Origin: Saprospira grandis
Lineage (GTDB): Bacteria; Bacteroidota; Bacteroidia; Chitinophagales; Saprospiraceae
Assembly (NCBI RefSeq): GCF_027594745.1
Contig: NZ_CP110854.1
Coordinates: 1,116,241-1,180,240 of the forward strand
Direction: 5' to 3'
DNA: 64,000 nt
Shown here: positions 5,417 through 61,845 of the stretch, piece after piece
Position numbering within the stretch: the stretch's first letter is position 1
Layout: the number at the start of each line of letters is the position of its first letter
The notes under the pieces: model-generated
What the model was told of the DNA's origin: nothing
What the model saw: the letters and a program-made list of their open reading frames with translations, nothing else
Databases searched by the model: none
Translations under genes and position numbers: made by a program

Positions 5417-6178
5417 ATGCATCGACTAATTATCTTTCTCCTCAGCTTTTTCCCGCTTCTTCTATTGGCCCAAATCAATACCGACCGCCCCACTCAATCC
5501 GAAAGCTCGGCCCTTGTTTTGCCCAAGCAACTACAGCTAGAGCTGGGCAGTAGCTGGCAGCAAGCCCCCGATTTACAGGCCTATCAATTGCCTGGTTTTT
5601 CTTGGCGCTACGGCCTCATTAAAGGCTTAGAATTGCGGGCCTTGGGGCAGCTGCAGCACCTTCGTCCTGAGCAAGAGCAGCTAAAAAACTACTGGAACCT
5701 TTCGGGCCTTCAGCTAGGCACAAAAATGCAGCTTTTTTCTAGCTCTTCTGGAGCTGCAGAAGGGGCTTGGGTCAGCCAAATAGCCCTTCCTGTGCAGACT
5801 TATGCGGGAGCGAGCAACTGGGCCTGGACCAACAAATTGGCCTTTAGCCATCAGCTCAATAGCCGACACAATTTGGCCTATAATCTGGGCACTCATTATG
5901 CCGAAGGGGGCCAACATAGCTTTAGCTACACCCTTTGCTGGTCCTATAGTTTGGCCAAGGGTTGGACCATTTTTCTAGAGCCTTATGGGCAGTTTTCGCC
6001 GCAAAACAATCCGCAACTTTGGGCCAATACGGGCCTCATTTATTTGCTCAATAACAACCTTCAGCTCGACTGTTCTTTTGGCCTAGACCTACAAACGGCC
6101 CAACAGTATTTTATTGGCCTAGGCCTCAGTAGCCGCTTTTTTGCCCCTTCCAAGGCTAAAGAAGAAGAGGAAGACTAG
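5417..6178 (+). CDS. Putative outer-membrane beta-barrel protein
   Basis: 253 aa. Signal peptide ending LLLAQ. Alternating hydrophobic/aromatic beta-strand-like segments. Unusual acidic tail KAKEEEED. Runs directly into repeat copy 3. Confidence 0.45.
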   Translation: MHRLIIFLLSFFPLLLLAQINTDRPTQSESSALVLPKQLQLELGSSWQQAPDLQAYQLPGFSWRYGLIKGLELRALGQLQHLRPEQEQLKNYWNLSGLQLGTKMQLFSSSSGAAEGAWVSQIALPVQTYAGASNWAWTNKLAFSHQLNSRHNLAYNLGTHYAEGGQHSFSYTLCWSYSLAKGWTIFLEPYGQFSPQNNPQLWANTGLIYLLNNNLQLDCSFGLDLQTAQQYFIGLGLSSRFFAPSKAKEEEED

Positions 6179-6185
6179 TTGTTTT

Positions 6186-6345
6186 CTTTTTTGGGGCTGC
6201 CCCGCCCTGCGGGCGGGTCGGGCTCTGTCGCAGCTCGCAGGGCTGCTCGGCCCTGCAGGCTTTTTCGCTTTGCTTCAAAAGCCTTGGGTCTGCCGCCTTG
6301 CGGCGGCCCTGCTTTCCATCCCTCAGCCGGGGCAGTTTTCTTCGC
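6186..6345. repeat. GC-rich interspersed repeat family, copy 3
   Basis: ttttttggggctgccccgccctgcgggcgggtcgggctctgtcgcagctcgcagggctgctcggccctgcagg...ctttccatccctcagccgg. Confidence 0.85.
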
Positions 6346-6381
6346 TCCAATGGTAATTTCTAGCCACAATCTCCCCCTTCT

Positions 6382-6861
6382 ATGCCCTATCTTATTTTTC
6401 TTTCCCTCTTCTTGAGCAGCTCTTTTCTTTTGGCCCAATTGCAGCCTCTACCCGAAGCGGGCGGAAAATTACTTCTTCAGGGAGATAGTCTATTTTATAT
6501 TGCGCCTAAAGCCAGTTATCTCTATCAAGCGGGGCAATTTATTGCCCTAAACAAAGCCCCAAAAGCGCCCAAAAAGAAACCTAGTCTGGCCTGGGGCGCC
6601 CAAGAGCGATACATTTTGGACCAAAGCCAAAACTTTCGAGCAGGCTATTGGGCCAAAGATCTGGACCAAAGCGAGGCCCTGCTCGAACAAAAGAAAGCCG
6701 AAAGCTGGCAGAGCTTTCGGCTTTTCCTTCCTCCTTATGAGGATGCTTACATTTATAGCCTAATAGAAAAAGAGGAGCAATTGTACCTCTGTCTCTATCT
6801 AGACGAACAACATTTTTTGCAACTTATTGCGGTAGAGCCGCCGCCTCCTTCTCTAAAATAG
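6382..6861 (+). CDS. Secreted hypothetical protein
   Basis: 159 aa; signal peptide; its 3' end overlaps the convergent FMO gene by ~38 nt. Confidence 0.45.
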   Translation: MPYLIFLSLFLSSSFLLAQLQPLPEAGGKLLLQGDSLFYIAPKASYLYQAGQFIALNKAPKAPKKKPSLAWGAQERYILDQSQNFRAGYWAKDLDQSEALLEQKKAESWQSFRLFLPPYEDAYIYSLIEKEEQLYLCLYLDEQHFLQLIAVEPPPPSLK

Positions 6862-8200
6862 AGCGGTAGGTGCTTGTATCTACACAGAAAGGCATATTGT
6901 CCTGCTTCAAGTATTTATAACCCGCAGTCATATCTGGGTTTGGACCAGCTTTTTTCGTCTTAAAGTCTAGGGCTTCGGCACAGCCTTGTTCTAATCCAGC
7001 AATAAAGTTGGCCACTAAGCGGGCTTGCTCTGCTCGGCCTTCCCAGCCTAAACCTACGGCTTCTACCATACCCAAAACAAAGAGGTTATCATATTGAGGG
7101 TGGAACATATTGAAGTAAAGCTTGGGCGCTCGTTCTTGCCAGTTCAGCTCCTTTTTGTCAATAAAAGGATAATCTAGCTTATAGCCAGTCGCCAACATCA
7201 AGATATCGTACTCTTCCTTTTGGCCATTTTTAAAATGGACCGTCTGCCCCTCAAATTTCTTAATGTCTCCACGAATGTTAATATCGCCTTGGCCAATATG
7301 CTGTAAAATCAGCGTATTCATTACTGGCCGAGACTCATACACCTTATGGTCTGGGGCTGGAAAACCAAAATTTTGAAGGTCGCCAACTACCCATTTGAGG
7401 AGCTTTCCGCCAATCCATTGCTGTAAAGGACGGGGCAGGCGCCATTTTCCGCCTAAGGTATCTGAGGGTTTGCCCATAATATATTTAGGGACAAAATAAT
7501 AGCCTCTACGGACAGAGACATCTACCTTGGGCGAACGGTGCGCCGCATCTACGGCAATATCGCAGCCACTGTTTCCAGCACCAATAATCAAGACCCGCTT
7601 ACCTTCAAAGATGGCCGCATTTTTATACTGCGAAGAATGCCAGATTTCTCCAGTAAACTCCCCTTTAAACTTGGGGTAATTGGGTTGGGCCAACATGCCA
7701 TTGGCAATAATGAGCCCCTTGTATAGATGGGTGGAACTTTGGCCATTTTGCTCTACCGTAATCTCCCACTGCTCTCCTTTTCTTTCGGTCTTGATCACCT
7801 TGGTCTGAAAAGAGTAGTGAGGATAAAGGTCAAACTCCTCGGCATAAGCCTGAAAATAGCTATACATCTCTCGATGAGAGGGATAGTCGGGCCAATGCTC
7901 TGGCATAGGGAAATCCTTGAATTCCGTTTGCTTTTTAGAAGAAATCAGGTGAGCTGACTCGTAGACAATGCTATTGGGATTATTGATATTCCATAATCCG
8001 CCAACATCTACACCTAGCTCAAAGCCATCAAAAGGAATTCCTTGTTCCTTGAGTGCTTTGGCCGCAGAAATCCCCGAAGGACCGGCACCAATAATAGCAT
8101 ATTTTTTTTCTGTTTGGAGGAGGGATTTGGGGCCGTGGACATTATTCTTGCGATTGGGCACAAATATATCGTTTTGGTGAAAGCGTAAGATGCTAGGCAT
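6824..8200 (-). CDS. Flavin-containing monooxygenase-like NAD(P)/FAD-binding oxidoreductase
   Basis: 458 aa. N-terminal dinucleotide-binding motif YAIIGAGPSGISAAKAL plus FMO-like GVDVGGLWN. Second GxGxxG motif VLIIGAGNSGCDIA. Confidence 0.8.
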   Translation of the reverse strand: MPSILRFHQNDIFVPNRKNNVHGPKSLLQTEKKYAIIGAGPSGISAAKALKEQGIPFDGFELGVDVGGLWNINNPNSIVYESAHLISSKKQTEFKDFPMPEHWPDYPSHREMYSYFQAYAEEFDLYPHYSFQTKVIKTERKGEQWEITVEQNGQSSTHLYKGLIIANGMLAQPNYPKFKGEFTGEIWHSSQYKNAAIFEGKRVLIIGAGNSGCDIAVDAAHRSPKVDVSVRRGYYFVPKYIMGKPSDTLGGKWRLPRPLQQWIGGKLLKWVVGDLQNFGFPAPDHKVYESRPVMNTLILQHIGQGDINIRGDIKKFEGQTVHFKNGQKEEYDILMLATGYKLDYPFIDKKELNWQERAPKLYFNMFHPQYDNLFVLGMVEAVGLGWEGRAEQARLVANFIAGLEQGCAEALDFKTKKAGPNPDMTAGYKYLKQDNMPFCVDTSTYRSILEKEAAALPQ

Positions 8201-11197: not shown

Positions 11198-12706
11198 TCA
11201 AAAATCAAAGGCCCGAGCAAAACAAGCCTCGGCCCAGTTTATTTCTTCCTGCTCAAAATGACGAAATTCTTTTTTTAAGGCTCTTTTTGATAAACGCCCC
11301 TGATTCTGTTTTAAAAATTGATGCAATAAACTTATTTCAGCATCTGAGAGCTCCATTTTTTCTAGCAGCCCTCTTTTAAAGCAATCATAAGCTGCCAAGT
11401 AAGCCAATTCTTTGGGAAGCAGTTCGGCCTTAATTTGCGCCAAACAACTACAAAAAAACTGAGCTTGCCGACTAACATCAAAGTAGCGATAGTAGTCTGC
11501 CGTCTCATTGCTAATCAAGACATTATGATCTGCCGATTCCCGCCATTCTATAAAAGATAAAACTGCAGCAGAATAGCTGCTGAGCGCCTGATGATATCCT
11601 TTTAAATCATTAAGTATAGCTGCTGATATAGGCCAAACAGAAGTCTGTACGCCCCTAGCCCCCAATATATGATGAAAAAGATAACGATGTAAACGCCCAT
11701 TTCCATCAACAAAAGGATGAATGAAGACAAAGGCAAAAGCCATTTCTGCAGCCAATAAAACCAAGGGAAACTCTTTCTCCTCTAAATATTCATAACTAGC
11801 CAAATAACAAGCTAATAGATCCTCTAGATCCGAAGCTTTTGCAGAAATATGCTCTGGCATCGGCTGCCCTGTTGCCCAATCATGCTCTCCTATAAATCCC
11901 TCTTGCTGACGTATACCTAATGCCCGCTTTTGCTTGCCCCCCAAAACAACAGTTTGCAACTCTTCTAATAAAGAAATCGACAAGGGCTGCTGCCCCGCTT
12001 GCCCCAACAAACGAGCCCAGGCCCAAGCCTGATTTGCCCTAGGCCGCTCTCCTTCTATAGAAAAGGAAGCCCTAGAATCTTTTAAGACTAAATAGGCGCT
12101 CGCTCGCTCCAAATCTGCGGAATTAAAATTATTCGTCCAGCTAGAAAAACCCTCTGCTATACAGTCATCTAGTTCTTGGCTCCGAAATATTAAAGGGCAA
12201 AAGCCTGGCAATCCTGGCAAATTATTCAAAATCCTATGCCGTGCAGAACGCTCTGGCCGAACCCCATACTGCAAATGCTCATCCAACAATAAGCAATAGT
12301 TTCCCCGCTTCAAATCATCTAAAGGCAAATGCTGGCCCATTAACCATTCATACAAAAACCAAATCTTTCGACTGTATTTCCCCCCTGGCGCCAAAGCCAA
12401 AAATGCTAATAGCTCTTTTTCTGCTATAGTCTCAAACAGCTTTTTGAAAAAAAGCAAGTTGATGCCTTCATATTTTAAAGCAAATACCAATTGCGACCAT
12501 AAATCATCCTCTGGCTGATAACGAACAGAAAAAACTCGCCAAGCTTCCGTTTCATATTGTCGATGCTTCAAACTAATTAAAGCCAATTTCTCAGGATAAG
12601 GAACTGCTAATCCTAAAGCATTGATAATAGCCCCATAACCCACTAAATAGCCCTCTTCAGCAGCAGCACGCCCCCGAAAAACAGTTATCCTTGATGAATA
12701 TTGCAT
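11198..12706 (-). CDS. Fic-family protein (AMPylase-type, class II with N-terminal inhibitory motif)
   Basis: 502 aa; canonical Fic motif HPFVDGNGRLHR; upstream SFSIEGE matching the (S/T)xxxE(G/N) inhibitory-helix motif. Confidence 0.85.
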   Translation of the reverse strand: MQYSSRITVFRGRAAAEEGYLVGYGAIINALGLAVPYPEKLALISLKHRQYETEAWRVFSVRYQPEDDLWSQLVFALKYEGINLLFFKKLFETIAEKELLAFLALAPGGKYSRKIWFLYEWLMGQHLPLDDLKRGNYCLLLDEHLQYGVRPERSARHRILNNLPGLPGFCPLIFRSQELDDCIAEGFSSWTNNFNSADLERASAYLVLKDSRASFSIEGERPRANQAWAWARLLGQAGQQPLSISLLEELQTVVLGGKQKRALGIRQQEGFIGEHDWATGQPMPEHISAKASDLEDLLACYLASYEYLEEKEFPLVLLAAEMAFAFVFIHPFVDGNGRLHRYLFHHILGARGVQTSVWPISAAILNDLKGYHQALSSYSAAVLSFIEWRESADHNVLISNETADYYRYFDVSRQAQFFCSCLAQIKAELLPKELAYLAAYDCFKRGLLEKMELSDAEISLLHQFLKQNQGRLSKRALKKEFRHFEQEEINWAEACFARAFDF

Positions 12707-21120: not shown

Positions 21121-21612
21121 TTTGGGGCCCGCGGCCCAGGCAGGCCTAGGGCCTGCCTGGGCCGCCGCTATGCTGCGCGGCTCGCTGTTCGCTCGGCCCA
21201 TCGCTTTTTCGCTTTGCTCAAAAGCTCGGTCTGGCCTGCGGCCACCGCTGCGCAGCGCTGGGCCGCTCGGCCTTTTAGCTTGGCCAGTTCTTTCTGCTGC
21301 GGCCCCCTTGGCCCCTCCTTTTAAATGGTATTCGTCGCTGCGCTCCTCATCCGTCTATATGTCCCCGCCCACCCACCCCTCTACGGGATTCCCTAAGGAA
21401 TCCCTCGGGATGGCTGGACCAATTCCTGCACCTCCTCCCCCACTAAATAGGCGGCTTCGCCGCCTCTGGCCCAAAGGGACAGAACGGCCTAGTGATGCGG
21501 CGGGGTGGCCCGAAGGGCCAGACCCAGGCGGCGCAGCCGCCGCAGGGCCGAGCAGACCTGCGAGCCCCAAAGCGTAACGGCGCAAGGCGAAGCCGCAGCG
21601 CAGGCCCCAACT
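21121..21612. repeat. GC-rich interspersed repeat family, composite copy 7 (forward module + S hairpin module + reverse module)
   Basis: ~490 bp between convergent genes; contains ...gctcgctgttcgctcggcc..., gggattccctaaggaatccctcggg, and ...cagggccgagcagacctgcgagcc... modules in opposite orientations. Confidence 0.85.
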
Positions 21613-30040: not shown

Positions 30041-30185
30041 TAGAGGCGGGCCCAGCCCGCCGGCCTAGCGATGGTAGGCAGTGCGGCGCAGCCGCAGACC
30101 CAGGCGCTGAAAGCGCCGCAGGGCCGAGCGAATAGCGAGCTGCCGAACGTAGCGCCGACGAGCGAAGCGAGGCGGAGGCCCCAAA
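30041..30185. repeat. GC-rich interspersed repeat family, copy 9
   Basis: ggcgggcccagcccgccggcctagcgatggtaggcagtgcggcgcagccgcagacccaggcgctgaaagcgccgcagggccgagcgaatagcgagctgccgaacgtagcgccgacgagcgaagcgaggcggaggccccaaa. Confidence 0.85.
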
Positions 30186-35664: not shown

Positions 35665-35810
35665 GGGGAGGGCCGAAGGCCCGACGGCCTAGCGATGTGC
35701 AGCAGTGGCCCGCAGGGCCAGACCAAAGCGCTTTAGCGCTGCAGGGCCGAGCGAAGAGCGAGCTGCGAAACGTAGCGCCGACGAGCGTAGCGAGGCGGAG
35801 GCCCCAAAAC
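35665..35810. repeat. GC-rich interspersed repeat family, copy 10
   Basis: ggccgaaggcccgacggcctagcgatgtgcagcagtggcccgcagggccagaccaaagcgctttagcgctgcagggccgagcgaagagcgagctgcgaaacgtagcgccgacgagcgtagcgaggcggaggccccaaaa. Confidence 0.85.
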
Positions 35811-37005: not shown

Positions 37006-37250
37006 TTACTGTTTTTTGGGGCTGCCCCTTCCGCCGGGTTAAAACCCAGCGCAAAGCGGCATCGCTTTGCGAGCTTATACAAAATGAGGGTTAAAACCCT
37101 CATGAATTATCGGCCGGGTCGGGCTGTGTCGTGGCTCGCAGGTCTGCTCGGCCCTGCGGGGCTTTCGCTTCGCTTCAGCCCCTGGGTCTGCGGCTTCGCC
37201 GCCCCACTTTCCATCCCTCAGCCAGCGGCGGCTTTGCCGCCTGTAGGACC
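37006..37250. repeat. GC-rich interspersed repeat family, copy 11, interrupted by a ~75-bp insert
   Basis: ttttttggggctgcccc|ttccgccgggttaaaacccagcgcaaagcggcatcgctttgcgagcttatacaaaatgagggttaaaaccctcatgaattatc|ggccgggtcgggctgtgtcgtggctcgcaggtctgctcggccctgcgg... Confidence 0.8.
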
Positions 37251-38905
37251 TAAAAATCTTGTCCTCGCTCTAGCATATTCCAACGCAAACCTAGGCGGCC
37301 CCAAAGCGCCTGCGGGCTTTCTGTTAGACCAGTTATCTTTTCTTGGCGGAAAGATAGGCCCAGGTCTACAAATAAATTGTGGCGCAGCTGATAACTGCCC
37401 AATAGATCCAGATATAATAAATGAGTGGCCAGCCCCTGCCCTATTTGGTTGCCATACTCCTGTTCTCTCGTAATATAGGAAAGGTGGATATTGCTGCCCC
37501 AATTGCTGCCGCTGCTATCCTGCCCATAAAAGGCATAGGTACATTGGGCCCGAAGCTGCAGTTTGGGCATTGGCTGATAGCGAATAATGGCCAAAAACTC
37601 TCTAAAGTTGGCCCCTAGCGGATGGGCCAAAGGCTGATTATAATGCGTATAACTAGCCGAGCTATCTCTAAAGGTATAGGTATAGGGACGAACCGTATTA
37701 AACTCCAATTGCAGATCTAGACGATTGATATTGGCTACATTTCGGTATTTGAGGCCCAATTGCAGACCCTGTTTGTTGGCCCACCAGCCCCCATTGGCCG
37801 CAGAAGGCGAACGGAAGACCTCTGAAAACACAAACTCATCAATGACCACTTGTCCATAAAAGGCAAAGCGCCGCAGAAAATCCCAGCGAAAATTTAGGCC
37901 CAGCATAGCATTATCTGGGCTGCCTAGGCCTTGCTCTACCGCCCGATAAAAAATAAGGGGATTGAGATATTGCAACTCAAACCCTTGCTCTCTACCGAAA
38001 ACGATGGCCTCAAACAAGCCAATTTGTAGGTTTTTGCTCAGTTTGAGGTCCAGATAATGCGCTGCCAAATACTTTTTGGGATAGAGCCCATTGGCTACAG
38101 GCGCATGATCCTGCGTCAATTCTGCAAAGATATTGCGGTAATGAAAGCGCCAAATGCGAGTATCTAATTGCAGATAAAAATAATTGTTTGAGAAATCGGA
38201 CAAGAGCAAAGAGCGGTGCCCATCGCCAATAAAATGGCGGCCATGGCCCAAGCGGGCCGAGATATAGGGCATAATCTGAAAACCAATATGTCCCTGGGCC
38301 AATAGATAATCTACCCCATCTTCTGGGGCATCGGTCAGTTGGCTATCATAGACCTTATAAAAGCCCGCCCCGGGCACTGCCCCAAACTCACTAATTCGGT
38401 TTTGGATATGGCGGGGAAAAGCTGCCTGATTTTCGGTAAGGGTTGTCGAAAAAAACAAGCGTTTAGCAATATCCCCCTCTAGGCGCAAGCCTCTACGGTT
38501 GAGGAAAAGCAGGTTTTGGCTTCCATCTTCTAGGCGCTCCCCTCCTGCTTGCAGATGCAATAAAGGATTGACCGAAAAATAGAAATCGCCAGTTTGCAAG
38601 GCATATAGATTGGCCTTTTGTCTGTAGAAATGCGACCAAAAACTTTTGGGTGCGGGGGCCAGGCTATCCCAAAGGGCATTATCGGCTAAAAGATAGCTAG
38701 AGTCTGGACTTTGGCTGGCCAGCTTGCGCAGATCGCTGCGCAAAAAGGGCCGCAGGCTGCTATGTGGTCCTTCCAATTGCGGGGCAAGGGTCTGTGCTCG
38801 GTCCAAATAATCATCGGCAGGGCCCTGCAGGGGGCTATATTGGCTAGTTTGGGCCCAAACACTGGCCGAAAGCAGCAAGGGCAGAAAATAAATGAGCGCT
38901 TTCAT
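37250..38905 (-). CDS. Putative outer-membrane beta-barrel protein (large)
   Basis: 551 aa; signal peptide LLLSASVWAQ; amphipathic beta-strand pattern; terminal residue Phe (…ERGQDF), typical of BAM-dependent OMPs. Confidence 0.5.
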   Translation of the reverse strand: MKALIYFLPLLLSASVWAQTSQYSPLQGPADDYLDRAQTLAPQLEGPHSSLRPFLRSDLRKLASQSPDSSYLLADNALWDSLAPAPKSFWSHFYRQKANLYALQTGDFYFSVNPLLHLQAGGERLEDGSQNLLFLNRRGLRLEGDIAKRLFFSTTLTENQAAFPRHIQNRISEFGAVPGAGFYKVYDSQLTDAPEDGVDYLLAQGHIGFQIMPYISARLGHGRHFIGDGHRSLLLSDFSNNYFYLQLDTRIWRFHYRNIFAELTQDHAPVANGLYPKKYLAAHYLDLKLSKNLQIGLFEAIVFGREQGFELQYLNPLIFYRAVEQGLGSPDNAMLGLNFRWDFLRRFAFYGQVVIDEFVFSEVFRSPSAANGGWWANKQGLQLGLKYRNVANINRLDLQLEFNTVRPYTYTFRDSSASYTHYNQPLAHPLGANFREFLAIIRYQPMPKLQLRAQCTYAFYGQDSSGSNWGSNIHLSYITREQEYGNQIGQGLATHLLYLDLLGSYQLRHNLFVDLGLSFRQEKITGLTESPQALWGRLGLRWNMLERGQDF

Positions 38906-38914
38906 GAAAACGAA

Positions 38915-39538
38915 TTAGAGCGTAAAGATAGCCCGCAGGCTAAACATATAGGGATTAAAATAAGTATCCTTGCGGATATTCATAGGGGCTCTTTGCCAGC
39001 GAACATTGAGGCCCCAATTTTTGGTAAAATAAAAGGTCAGGTCGGCCACAATCATGACATAATCCTTTCGAAAATTATCAATTACAGCAGGGTCATCTTG
39101 TCCATTGATAGCTACAGTAGCATTAAGGATACGATTATAGGAAAGGCCTGCCCCAAACTGCATACGGTGGTAGCTATCCTTGCCATCTTCTGTGGAAATT
39201 TCCCAATCTTTGAGTAAGATAAGGACCGGCACCTCTATATTATTAAGGTGTAGATAAAAGTTGCGGGGCGCTCCCTGAAGAGAAGGCGACTGGCTACCTT
39301 GCTGAGAAAAAAGAATCTCTACCCCTAGGTCCCAAATAGGCGCCAAACGGGCCGTTCCTCTTGCGCCAAGGTTTAGGCCGGGCTTGGTATAGCCTGCGGC
39401 ATCATCGCCATCTATTTGGGCCATATTTACCCCAGCAATAATGCTAGCCGAAAAGCGATTCTGATAATCTGAAGACTGCGCTAGAAGCGGTAAGGTCCCC
39501 ATCCATAAGATAAGAAAGCATAAGATATTAAGTCGCAT
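38915..39538 (-). CDS. Small outer-membrane beta-barrel protein (OmpA-like/porin-like barrel family)
   Basis: 207 aa; signal peptide PLLAQ; alternating hydrophobic pattern; aromatic-rich C-terminus. Confidence 0.5.
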   Translation of the reverse strand: MRLNILCFLILWMGTLPLLAQSSDYQNRFSASIIAGVNMAQIDGDDAAGYTKPGLNLGARGTARLAPIWDLGVEILFSQQGSQSPSLQGAPRNFYLHLNNIEVPVLILLKDWEISTEDGKDSYHRMQFGAGLSYNRILNATVAINGQDDPAVIDNFRKDYVMIVADLTFYFTKNWGLNVRWQRAPMNIRKDTYFNPYMFSLRAIFTL

Positions 39539-39611
39539 AGTAAATATTTTAGCGTGAAAGCCTCAAAATACTGCGCTTTTAGGGGATTGGGAAGGCGGGG
39601 GCTATTTTTTA

Positions 39612-39659
39612 TCGTTTTGGAAAATAGAAACGGTCTATAGGCTCTTCCCTATAGACCGT
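39612..39659 (-). terminator. Rho-independent terminator at the 3' end of the AT-rich island operon
   Basis: Forward strand reads ggaaaatagaaACGGTCTATAGGctcttcCCTATAGACCGT. This is a 12-bp perfect stem directly after the stop at 39663, with a U-rich tract in the minus-strand sense. Confidence 0.65.
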
Positions 39660-39662
39660 TGG

Positions 39663-39929
39663 TTAGGACTTTAAATATGTTTTATTATTAAGTGCTACAA
39701 GCATTCTTTCAATTATTTCAGCCATTAAATCACCTAATAATAGCTTGTAATCGTTATAGTCTTTCTGATCGATTTTAGAAGCTGTAAGTACCTCAACTCC
39801 ATGTGCTATACGATTTCGACTGTCTAACAAACTCTTTAGGTCTCTTTCCAAAAAATGTCTGGCTCCTGATAAACCTTTATGGACCTTTGAAAACTTTTCA
39901 ATACCAAATAAAATCAAGCGATCATTCAT
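39663..39929 (-). CDS. Small protein with HEPN-like Rx4HG motif (island ORF C)
   Basis: The ORF-track start at 39944 is TTG; first ATG at comp 39927-29 (MNDRLILFG...). Contains LLDSRNRIAHG (R-x4-H-G), the HEPN RNase signature position. AT-rich codon usage. Confidence 0.4.
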   Translation of the reverse strand: MNDRLILFGIEKFSKVHKGLSGARHFLERDLKSLLDSRNRIAHGVEVLTASKIDQKDYNDYKLLLGDLMAEIIERMLVALNNKTYLKS

Positions 39930-39970
39930 GACCTTAAATCCCAAATTACTATTTGTGTTAATTATAGTGT

Positions 39971-40387
39971 TTAACCTAATTGGGTCGCTGTAACAGTAGT
40001 TTCAAATTTTTGGTAGAATCTAATTTTCTGAGCTATTCTTTGAGGAGAATTAACCAATTGGCTAACCTGATCTTCAAGATGACGGACAACAATGCTATCT
40101 AAAAGATCAAATAATTCCACCTTCACGCTTATCATTTCTTGATTTAAGAAGGAAATATATTCTGCAAGTAAATTTTGAAAAAAACCTTCCCAAGCAGCAT
40201 AGAGCATAGCTATAGATTGCTGAGAAAGTATATTTTGCTGAACTTCTTTGAACGCTCCCCTAGTAGGCTTAATAAATGAAATATCTTCAATTTCTCTAAA
40301 TAGCTTCAAATAACTATCTAGTAAGATTTCAGTCGTTTGCTTAAAATCGTCTATTGTCATTTGTTTATTATTTCTAAATGCTATCAC
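39971..40387 (-). CDS. Hypothetical alpha-helical protein (island ORF B)
   Basis: 138 aa. First codon is GTG overlapping the DUF262 stop (GTGA junction); first ATG is 27 nt downstream. It is in a different frame from ORF C, with a 26-nt gap between them. Confidence 0.4.
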   Translation of the reverse strand: MIAFRNNKQMTIDDFKQTTEILLDSYLKLFREIEDISFIKPTRGAFKEVQQNILSQQSIAMLYAAWEGFFQNLLAEYISFLNQEMISVKVELFDLLDSIVVRHLEDQVSQLVNSPQRIAQKIRFYQKFETTVTATQLG

Positions 40388-41529
40388 TCGCTAAATAAAG
40401 AGACTGCTCTTGTCAAACGATTTCTTGTTCGACTTCTAGAATTTGAAGCAGAGCCTGAGGCCTGTCTAAAAACTGCATCTTCTTTTAATTCCTCTATTTT
40501 TCTTCTTAGGGCATCATAGTCATCTACAAAGCGTTCAAAGTTTTGCTCTACGCCTATACAAATACCATCAAATAAAGCAGGAGTAAACTGGCCGCTCTGA
40601 TTTTTAAAAATATTCTCATCCCCTAATTCCAACAAAAGATTAAACACCTTTTCAAAATTTGATACAAAAGGCTCCTTCTCAAAAGATGGATCTTTTGAGA
40701 GCTTTTGCATGAAGTTATCTAAGAAAACCTCCATTTTATCGCTAATAGATTGATGCCTACCATTAGAGTAAGCTAAAAACCTTAAGACCAACTCTTGATT
40801 ATATAATTCTTGTTTTTTAGCAGCAGATAGCTGGTTTCCAACTAGACGCAGAAAACTATCCTTCTGGCTTAACTCTAAGAGCATATCCGCTACCCTTACC
40901 CCATTATCCTCTGTCCGAAAAATAGCATTCCTAATTTCTTGTGGTTTCAACTTACTTCCGCCTGAGTTTAAGCGCTTAAACAGCTCAAACTTCATACTCC
41001 TACCAGTATTTGATCTTAGTATTTCTACTCGGCAGACTGCTCGTTTAATATTCAACTGCAACTTTCGGGGTAAATCATAAAACCCATAACCTTCTAAAGC
41101 GGGTAACAAAATAGCCTTAGCTAACTTCCATTTGTTCATGCCTCCCTCAGTTACATGCTCCTCAGCTTCATCCTCATCCTCTAAACGAGTTGTTATTGAA
41201 TAATTTTCAGATTCTGACAAATGCCCTAAAAAAGAAATAATGGTTGCTGACCGCTGCAAACCATCAATGATTTCCCAACCTCCATCTTCTACTTCTGCTA
41301 CAAAAATAGGGGGAATAGGAATAGCCAGTAAGATGGACTCTATCAAGGCTGTTTTCTGGTCCTCTGTCCAACGGTACAAACGCTGGTATTCTGGTCGGAT
41401 GATTAGTTCATTATCACGATACATATTAACCAGCTCCCCAAAAGAAAGGTCCATCCTTTCTGTAGATATTTCACTCCGTTTATTAGCTACTTGTTGTTCT
41501 AAATCTTCTTCTCTTATTTGTTGAGCCAT
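40384..41529 (-). CDS. DUF262 (ParB/Srx-like N-terminal domain) protein
   Basis: 381 aa; IRPEYQRLYRW...QKTALIESILLAIPIPPIFV...WEIIDGLQRSATI matches the DUF262 hallmark (xYQRxYxW ... PIP ... DGQQR). No obvious C-terminal His-Me/HNH (DUF1524) motif. Confidence 0.8.
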   Translation of the reverse strand: MAQQIREEDLEQQVANKRSEISTERMDLSFGELVNMYRDNELIIRPEYQRLYRWTEDQKTALIESILLAIPIPPIFVAEVEDGGWEIIDGLQRSATIISFLGHLSESENYSITTRLEDEDEAEEHVTEGGMNKWKLAKAILLPALEGYGFYDLPRKLQLNIKRAVCRVEILRSNTGRSMKFELFKRLNSGGSKLKPQEIRNAIFRTEDNGVRVADMLLELSQKDSFLRLVGNQLSAAKKQELYNQELVLRFLAYSNGRHQSISDKMEVFLDNFMQKLSKDPSFEKEPFVSNFEKVFNLLLELGDENIFKNQSGQFTPALFDGICIGVEQNFERFVDDYDALRRKIEELKEDAVFRQASGSASNSRSRTRNRLTRAVSLFSE

Positions 41530-41832
41530 AACTTATTTTTTAGTTTCTCTAATAGTTAAATATAGGGCATTTTGTACTTTTTTCCAACAAAAACTAATAA
41601 TAAGAAAGGCGGGGGCTGTTTTTTATTGATGGTTTTGCCTTTTCTGCGCCTAGGCGCAGGAAAGGGGAAAGACAAAGTTTTAAACAGCCCCCCATAGCTA
41701 GAAATGGATTGATTAACTAACTGAGAAAGATAAAAGGCCAAAAGATTTCAATCCATGCGGGTTTTAACCCGCATGCCATAAAAAATATTGCGGAGCAATA
41801 CCTTGCTTGCTGTAGGTTTCAACCTACAGTAA

Positions 41833-41958
41833 ACGGCCTAGCGATGTGGAGGGGTGGCCGAAGGCCAGACCGAGGAGCGGAGCGACGAAGGGCCGAGCAG
41901 ACCTGCGAGCCCCGCAACGTAGCGCCGACGAGCGCAGCGAGGCGGAGGCCCCAAAACA
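41833..41958. repeat. GC-rich interspersed repeat family, copy 12
   Basis: ggcctagcgatgtggaggggtggccgaaggccagaccgaggagcggagcgacgaagggccgagcagacctgcgagccccgcaacgtagcgccgacgagcgcagcgaggcggaggccccaaaa. Confidence 0.85.
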
Positions 41959-42009
41959 TCCCAATAGGCACAAAAAAAAAGCTGAATAACTCTAAAGTTA
42001 TTCAGCTTT

Positions 42010-42085
42010 TGGTCGGGATGACTGGACTTGAACCAGCGACCACTCGCCCCCCAGACGAGTACTCTACCAACTGAGCTACATCCCG
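42010..42085 (-). tRNA. tRNA-Pro(GGG): tRNA-Pro (anticodon GGG), CCA encoded
   Basis: The reverse complement CGGGATGTAGCTCAGTTGGTAGAGTACTCGTCTGGGGGGCGAGTGGTCGCTGGTTCAAGTCCAGTCATCCCGACCA has a 7-bp acceptor stem (CGGGATG/CATCCCG). Anticodon stem CTCGT/GCGAG with loop CTGGGGG. Confidence 0.75.
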
Positions 42086-44091: not shown

Positions 44092-44411
44092 TGGGGCCTC
44101 CGCAGCTTCGCTGCGGCGCTACGTTTCGCAGCTCGCTATTCGCTCGGCCCTTCGCCAGCAAGCTGGCTCGGTCTGGCCCTGCGGGCCACTGCTACACATC
44201 GCTAGGCCATGAACGAGCGCAGCGAGCTGCGCCCAGCAGGCGGCAAAGCCGCCGCAAAGGCGCGAAGCGCCTCGGCTGAGGGATGGATAGGGTGGGCCGC
44301 AGGGCCAGACCCAAGTTTTTTGAAGCGAAGCGAAAAAAACTGCAGGGCCGAGCAGACCTGCGAGCCCGGCACAGCCCGACCCAAGGCCGTAGGCCGCAGG
44401 GGCAGCCCCAA
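44092..44411. repeat. GC-rich interspersed repeat family, composite copy 13 (forward module then reverse module)
   Basis: ggggcctccgcagcttcgctgcggcgctacgtttcgcagctcgctattcgctcggccc... then ...cagggccgagcagacctgcgagcccggcacagcccgacccaaggccgtaggccgcaggggcagccccaaa. Confidence 0.85.
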
Positions 44412-61692: not shown

Positions 61693-61845
61693 ATGGCCCA
61701 GCGCTGCGGAGCGGGTGGCCGAAGGCCAGACCAAAGGCAGGCTGCGCCTGCCTGCAGGGCCGAGCAGACCTGCGAGCCCCGCAGCATAGCGGCGGCCGAC
61801 CTAGGCGCAGCCTAGCCGGCCGCGGGCCCCAAAAAAAACGAAATC
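61693..61845. repeat. GC-rich interspersed repeat family, copy 19
   Basis: cccagcgctgcggagcgggtggccgaaggccagaccaaaggcaggctgcgcctgcctgcagggccgagcagacctgcgagccccgcagcatagcggcggccgacctaggcgcagcctagccggccgcgggccccaaaa; near-identical to copy 4. Confidence 0.85.

Follow-up and report, generated by a model that had tools for sequence, protein, structure and literature searches.

Organization and composition of the locus

A stretch of 64,000 bp from Saprospira grandis (NCBI RefSeq assembly GCF_027594745.1, contig NZ_CP110854.1, positions 1,116,241 to 1,180,240 of the forward strand), here called the window, was analysed for an AT-rich segment at the 3' side of tRNA-Pro(GGG) which carries a DUF262 gene followed by a HEPN gene. 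The segment had been described from the letters of the sequence, without database searches (the sequence-only reading), as an island of three co-oriented minus-strand open reading frames (ORFs) encoding one DUF262 protein and two small HEPN-like proteins. The three ORFs were present with the motifs named for them, and the GTG start of the second overlaps the stop of the DUF262 gene. The count of three genes was revised, as the two small ORFs are a single 232-aa gene that is split here and intact in four close relatives. The genes and features of the operon are as follows.

40384..41529, minus strand: ORF A, 381 aa, the DUF262 protein, containing EYQRLYRW, IPIPPIF and DGLQR in the ORF listing
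39971..40387, minus strand: ORF B, 138 aa, with a GTG start that overlaps the ORF A stop
39663..39944, minus strand: ORF C, 93 aa, containing LLDSRNRIAHG
39663..40360, minus strand: HEPN gene of the RiboL-PSP/MAE_28990 type, 232 aa when intact, a pseudogene here that is split into ORF B and ORF C
39984..39986, minus strand: 1-nt deletion breaking the HEPN frame, GCGAACCC in relatives and GCGACCC here
39619..39660, minus strand: terminator-like hairpin (13-pair stem, 39660-39629) with the T-rich tail TCTATTTTCC, closing the two-gene operon at the end of the island where a terminator had been proposed

The GC content was 0.33-0.40 over 39.5-41.75 kb and 0.45-0.53 in the flanks. The cassette itself (39613-41626, 2,014 bp) had a GC content of 0.353, which is the minimum among all 2-kb windows of the 64 kb; the other 2-kb windows had a mean of 0.475 with a standard deviation of 0.03 (z = -4.06 for the cassette). 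In addition, the DUF262 gene showed the lowest GC content at third codon positions (GC3, 0.323) among the 38 long ORFs in the window. The composition profile and codon usage were thus in agreement with the AT-rich island that had been claimed.

The DUF262 protein

Search of the 381-aa protein in Pfam showed a match with PF03235 (GmrSD_N/DUF262) over residues 31-204 (5.7e-29), and neither DUF1524 nor HNH gave a Pfam match in this protein even at E ≤ 10, so that its proposed identity as a DUF262 protein lacking DUF1524 was upheld. Among the PADLOC models, the protein matched NsnA (1.6e-63, 39-380/385) and PD-T4-2_A (2.9e-45, 40-362/363). The residues of the DUF262 motifs QRxxxW (Q49-W54), DGLQR (D89-R93) and FxxxN (F184-N188), with motif definitions taken from PMC12065111, were invariant across 24 homologues. 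NsnA has been described with a helical "ParBDB" domain of DNA-binding type (PMC12065111). Because the NsnA match is full-length, the C-terminal ~175 residues of the window protein would by homology be a helical ParBDB-type domain, and this domain is probably DNA-binding.

The AlphaFold2 model of the protein had a predicted local distance difference test score (pLDDT) of 80. Foldseek with this model showed BrxU as the best match (probability 0.97, TMq 0.27), followed by CTP-bound ParB structures and sulfiredoxin; the TM-scores were low and were taken as fold-level support only. When the two protein families were searched as profiles against PDB sequences, no solved relative was detected, and none of the three ORFs had a meaningful match in NCBIfam. 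The DUF262 gene itself is intact, and its ratio of nonsynonymous to synonymous substitution rates (dN/dS) of 0.10-0.20 among Saprospira strains indicates purifying selection.

The HEPN gene and its frameshift

ORF B and ORF C each scored above the Pfam gathering score for HEPN families, which confirmed the HEPN identity that had been assigned to the small ORFs. The matches were to successive parts of the same profiles: positions 3-93 (ORF B) and 123-187 (ORF C) of HEPN_RiboL-PSP, which has 191 positions, and positions 30-113 (ORF B) and 156-211 (ORF C) of HEPN_MAE_28990. The likely start of ORF B is the ATG at 40360, which places the HEPN gene start 23 nt after the DUF262 stop, while the frame of ORF C continues upstream without a stop as far as 40001, overlapping the end of ORF B in a different frame. 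DNA alignment showed that a single A is missing at ~39985 in the window and in L004, an assembly of run SRR23239775, compared with the intact gene in three metagenome contigs and Saprospira grandis DSM 2844 (L001, L002, L003 and L005). In L005 the intact pair occupies positions 6001-7871. With one base restored, a single 232-aa protein was obtained which matched PF18735 in one stretch (2.9e-23, 3-187/191) with 83.2 bits (cut-off 28.4), and PF18737 with 63.6 bits (cut-off 26.8). The protein has the all-alpha HEPN fold, and a public intact 232-aa orthologue (P0001) is 98% identical to the rejoined sequence. Overall, one frameshifted HEPN gene accounts for both small ORFs, which are its N- and C-terminal halves.

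The Rx4H motif is present as SRNRIAHG (R182...H187 of the 232-aa protein), with R182 and H187 invariant in 60 homologues and nearly invariant in 78 operon partners; the N of the motif is likewise invariant. Conserved HEPN residues are separated by the split, with Y54 and E58 on one fragment and N139, R182, N183, H187 and G188 on the other. Because the deletion separates the part with Y54 and E58 from the catalytic C-terminal half, the HEPN effector is most likely inactive in this strain. The inactivation is recent, since the DUF262 gene is unbroken and evolves under purifying selection, and only 2 residues separate the repaired HEPN protein from the sibling allele.

Two other explanations of the split bear directly on these results. 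The two small proteins might be separate subunits of a three-component system, either as a split HEPN that reassembles or as two HEPN-like partners. Both halves are open with possible starts (GTG or ATG for ORF B, TTG or ATG for ORF C) and no further disabling mutations have accumulated, as such a system would have it. However, the two ORFs match complementary sections of a single Pfam HEPN profile without overlap, the split is due to a 1-nt deletion that four close relatives do not have, Y54/E58 and N139/R182/H187 fall on different fragments, and 74 of the 77 bacterial and archaeal loci encode the partner as one HEPN protein. Functional separate subunits are therefore very improbable.

A sequencing or assembly artefact, under which the strain would hold an intact and functional DUF262-HEPN system, is unlikely, though it is the main alternative. 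In its favour, the one missing base is the only lesion, and the gene is otherwise 98% identical to its intact orthologues. Against an artefact, the deletion falls in an AA dinucleotide and not in a long homopolymer, and the separately computed assembly L004, which is 100% identical to the window over 4,619 bp, shows the same split (129-aa and 88-aa genes), although L004 and the window genome may go back to one set of reads, so that L004 may not be independent.

Boundaries and insertion of the cassette

The operon is bracketed by two copies of a 21-nt direct repeat which differ by one mismatch.

41606..41626, strand not assigned: left copy of the direct repeat (AAGGCGGGGGCTGTTTTTTAT), tRNA-Pro side, 95% identity, 2,014 spacing
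39592..39612, strand not assigned: right copy of the direct repeat; homology to the cassette-less locus L085 begins exactly here
42010..42085, minus strand: tRNA-Pro(GGG), found by ARAGORN, Rfam tRNA 63.9 bits

A search of the 64 kb with up to 3 mismatches gave these 2 matches only (0.03 expected by chance), and two copies were found in every cassette-bearing locus (L001-L005). The cassette limits are about 39592-41626, in place of the 39540-41830 of the sequence-only reading. The more distant relative L085 has neither DUF262 nor HEPN upstream of its outer membrane protein (OMP) gene. Its nucleotide identity with the window was 87%, and protein identity was 90% for OMP and 94% for Wzi. The homology covers window positions 37110-39613 and stops at the repeat, where L085 has a single variant copy of the 21-mer. 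Together, the repeat and the L085 breakpoint are what an insertion that duplicates its target, or an attachment site (att)-like sequence, leaves behind. Horizontal acquisition of the 2,014-bp cassette is supported by its lowest GC content, the unique flanking 21-nt repeat and the L085 breakpoint at that repeat.

No integrase ORF was found between 39.5 and 42.1 kb and the cassette encodes no recombinase, so the absence of an integrase noted earlier stands; the accompanying statement that no att duplication is visible does not, given the 21-nt direct repeat that flanks the cassette. The repeat is not tRNA sequence and in this respect does not correspond to an att site derived from a tRNA 3' end. 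In L085, the ~1 kb that precedes the OMP gene is non-coding and contains a 42-bp tandem repeat (L085:650-964, 7.5 copies, 97% identical) and several short hairpins.

A variable defence site beside tRNA-Pro

Comparison with sibling strains showed that L001 and S. grandis DSM 2844 (L005) carry an extra 5.5 kb between tRNA-Pro and the cassette.

L001:2832-8330 and L005:1-5435: extra block, with its insertion point at window positions 41970-42026
41970..42026, minus strand: last 17 nt of tRNA-Pro and its terminator hairpin, duplicated in the siblings, where it brackets the 5.5-kb block

The block encodes Septu PtuA (1e-133) and PtuB (3.7e-70), a type II restriction enzyme of the BsuBI/PstI type with its methylase, and a C-terminal fragment of a type I restriction enzyme. 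On both sides the block is flanked by the 3' end of tRNA-Pro with its terminator, duplicated over 55-57 bp in L001 and with a partial copy in L005, and no integrase gene was seen in it. The Septu and restriction-modification (R-M) cargo was also sought elsewhere in the 64-kb window and was absent. Because the siblings hold this extra Septu and R-M block at the same site, the position beside tRNA-Pro is a variable defence hotspot of which the window strain carries a minimal version. The defence and mobile context that had been suggested for the island was thus found both here and among the more distant relatives described below.

Conservation and spread of the DUF262-HEPN pair

More than 4,200 relatives of the DUF262 protein were detectable, and a scan of a collection with one genome per species gave 241. 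The top 120 relatives ranged from 371 to 446 aa, with nearly all at 375-390 aa, and were ~50-54% identical to the window protein with the exception of two Saprospira sequences; they belonged to Bacteroidota, Cyanobacteria, Firmicutes and Deltaproteobacteria. For the neighbourhood survey, 80 loci from Bacteria and Archaea were kept, and the partners of 77 genome loci plus P0001 (78 in total) were scanned. An ORF of 208-247 aa was nearly always located within a few nt of the DUF262 stop across the 80 loci. Matches with HEPN_MAE_28990 and HEPN_RiboL-PSP were found in 75 of the 78 partners (74 of the 77 genome loci, and P0001). DUF262 and HEPN form a near-obligate pair that is highly conserved from phylum to phylum.

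No universal third gene was found around the pair. Among the 140 nearest-neighbour proteins scanned, DNA methylases were the commonest (N6_N4_Mtase, 12/140), and XhoI, Eco57I and then AAA_15/21 ATPases, integrases and resolvases were also present. In 10 loci of a more distant clade of ~35% identity, an N6_N4 methylase of ~430 aa lies directly upstream on the same strand, which gives the order methyltransferase (MTase)-DUF262-HEPN.

Loci with the neighbours described here: L050, L051, L057, L058, L061, L069, L073 and L075 (upstream of the DUF262 gene); L052, L054 and L065 (downstream); L066, L071 and L072

XhoI R-M pairs follow the HEPN gene in several loci, and three cyanobacterial loci have a TGT/DUF5591 protein ahead of the pair. 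The clade with the linked methylase may point to self-marking of an R-M-like kind. In addition, relatives were found in 143 plasmid records (73 conjugative) and in 33 phage records. One pair on an E. coli IncF plasmid is annotated as "DUF262 domain-containing protein" and "MAE_28990/MAE_18760 family HEPN-like nuclease".

Comparison with known defence systems

The combination of DUF262 with a separately encoded HEPN protein had been taken for an arrangement without a characterised counterpart, which did not hold: the architecture is already described. PD-T4-2 of E. coli ECOR65 was validated in 2022 and is listed as "DUF262, HEPN" with two CDS in 1,540 bp (Vassallo et al. 2022, Table S1, PMC9519451). 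It protects against T4, and its deletion from native ECOR65 restores plaquing (PMC9519451). A 2023 review gives its families as DUF262 and PF18735 (PMC10952713). Earlier, a computational catalogue had recorded "Ribo L-PSP-HEPN ... operon with ParB" (Anantharaman et al. 2013, PMC3710099). A literature search found no mechanistic study of PD-T4-2, and no paper was returned when full texts were searched for RiboL-PSP and DUF262 jointly.

The comparison with PD-T4-2 was made through PADLOC profiles and published domain calls. Both have two co-directional genes, DUF262 without DUF1524 and then HEPN (PF18735), and the PD-T4-2_A model spans the window DUF262 protein in full. PD-T4-2 differs in being smaller (1,540 bp, profiles of 363 and 168 positions, against 381 and 232 aa here) and in its E. 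coli host, whereas the HEPN here is frameshifted and the host is Saprospira (Bacteroidota). The ParB-HEPN operons of PMC3710099 have the same HEPN families and the same operon partner, but they are a computational description and include a methylase partner, which the Saprospira cassette lacks.

Menshen (NsnABC; Millman 2022; Li et al. 2025, PMC12065111) shares, as the NsnA match implies, the two-domain build of an NsnA-type ParB-DUF262 domain and ParBDB. It differs in its NsnB ABC ATPase and NsnC inPIN-nuclease, whereas here HEPN lies downstream, followed by OMP and Wzi. Menshen was rejected as NsnB and NsnC are missing downstream and 75/78 partners are HEPN. GmrSD, BrxU and SspE resemble the window protein in carrying a DUF262 NTPase domain and its DGxQR motif at the N terminus, and BrxU was the top structural match. 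Their DUF1524 His-Me nuclease is fused, while none is present here and the presumed effector is the separately encoded HEPN. By analogy with other HEPN proteins, the target of this presumed effector would be RNA rather than DNA, unlike that of GmrSD, BrxU and SspE. This type was rejected for the lack of the DUF1524 His-Me (HNH-like) domain, and the SspE, HEC-05 and HEC-06 models matched a short N-terminal part only. Finally, Dazbog (DzbAB) was rejected with a DzbA match of E 0.0066 over 27 residues and DzbB in 1/78 partners (PADLOC).

Interpretation and proposed mechanism

Overall, the locus is best explained as a 2,014-bp acquired two-gene cassette of the PD-T4-2 type, with a DUF262 NTPase and a HEPN RNase, of which the effector was broken by a recent 1-nt deletion; we put the probability of this explanation at roughly three in four. 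Several points weigh against it. PD-T4-2_B matched the joined HEPN protein marginally (E 1.7e-3, profile 69-135/168), the same model matched 2/78 partners (E ≤ 0.01), and the DUF262 protein scored higher on Menshen NsnA than on PD-T4-2_A in PADLOC. PD-T4-2 itself has been described as "largely uncharacterized" (PMC12065111). The L085 contig is short and stops 986 bp upstream of the OMP gene, which makes the empty site one-sided, and an assembly error is in principle possible as the source of the frameshift. In addition, sensing, NTPase activity, RNase activity and target would all be carried over from other DUF262 and HEPN proteins. Since PD-T4-2_B matches marginally and NsnA outscores PD-T4-2_A, strict membership in PD-T4-2 and orthology of the effector to PD-T4-2_B are tentative.

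In the proposed mechanism, the product of gene 1 would be a DUF262 NTPase of the ParB/sulfiredoxin fold with a helical, probably DNA-binding C-terminal domain. This DUF262-ParBDB protein may bind DNA and sense invading DNA that is modified or otherwise foreign, with NTP binding or hydrolysis acting as a switch on recognition. The switch would license the HEPN partner to cut RNA, and RNA cleavage could then stop phage multiplication through growth arrest or abortive infection. The sensing and switching steps are proposed by analogy with GmrSD, BrxU, SspE and ParB (PMC10952713, PMC12065111) and with HEPN biology (PMC3710099).

The pair could instead be primarily a toxin-antitoxin or addiction module in which DUF262 inhibits a HEPN toxin and which stabilises mobile DNA rather than sensing phage. 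HEPN toxins are commonly paired with a neutralising partner, as in MNT-HEPN, and analogous ParA-HEPN dyads were proposed in PMC3710099. The relatives are frequent on plasmids, including the 73 conjugative ones, and loss of the putative toxin with its partner kept, as here, is a typical path of toxin-antitoxin decay. However, a large NTPase encoded first, with a DNA-binding-type C-terminal domain, fits a sensor better than a simple antitoxin, and the sole tested representative of the architecture is a phage defence in its native host. A primary addiction role is thus improbable, although toxin-antitoxin function and abortive-infection defence are not mutually exclusive.

More tentatively, and beyond the PD-T4-2-type cassette, the pair of a ~380-aa DUF262 protein and a ~210-235-aa RiboL-PSP/MAE_28990 HEPN protein may be a distinct and very widespread system that defence models miss, in which a ParB-type NTP switch reads DNA modification and releases an RNase. 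Its range would cover at least 241 species-level genomes of Bacteria and Archaea, besides plasmids and phages. This is possible rather than probable; it draws support in one clade from the dedicated N6/N4 methylase upstream in the same operon. If true, it would couple R-M-like self/non-self logic to RNA cleavage.

Other features of the window

The Rfam scan of 39.4-42.2 kb showed nothing besides the tRNA, and the counts of promoter-like and terminator-like signals in the region were not above those of shuffled sequences. A GC-rich dispersed repeat, similar to repetitive extragenic palindromic (REP) sequences or miniature inverted-repeat transposable elements (MITEs), is represented by fragments at >15 sites across the window and was seen 3' of Wzi in L085 as well. 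Its presence at 41854-41956 accounts for the GC-rich stretch between tRNA-Pro and the cassette.

Fragments of the GC-rich dispersed repeat: 41854-41956, 35769-35809, 30146-30185, 61756-61783, 2236-2273, 21544-21568, 44344-44367 and ~10 further intergenic sites

Short intergenic hairpins with variable stems were observed near tRNA-Pro at window positions 41739-41830 and at L085:20-110. They are centred on GGTTGAAACC or GGTTAAAACC, with ctgtaGGTTGAAACCtacag and gcatgcGGGTTAAAACCCgcatg as examples, and recur in both strains. Elsewhere in the window, a 502-aa ORF (11198-12706, minus strand) had the second-lowest GC3 (0.359) and a Fic-type motif, HPFVDGNGR, which was identified by eye; it may be another acquired gene.

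Significance of the cassette

The annotation of the locus is corrected to one frameshifted HEPN pseudogene in place of two small proteins, within a well-delimited 2-kb cassette in a tRNA-Pro-adjacent defence hotspot of which the content varies among Saprospira strains. The DUF262 protein is ~50% identical between Bacteroidota, Cyanobacteria and Firmicutes. Of the DUF262-HEPN pair, only one half is recognised by common defence-finder models. This annotation gap was seen for the window ORFs and for the E. coli plasmid and phage pairs (L095 and L096): the DUF262 proteins favoured NsnA over PD-T4-2_A, and the HEPN partners matched no PADLOC v2 model convincingly. With DUF262 drawn to NsnA and the HEPN partner matching no model, such pairs likely go uncalled by PADLOC. 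The broader family would be worth mechanistic study, with the intact copies of S. grandis DSM 2844 and the metagenome contigs as the ones to use in place of the window copy.

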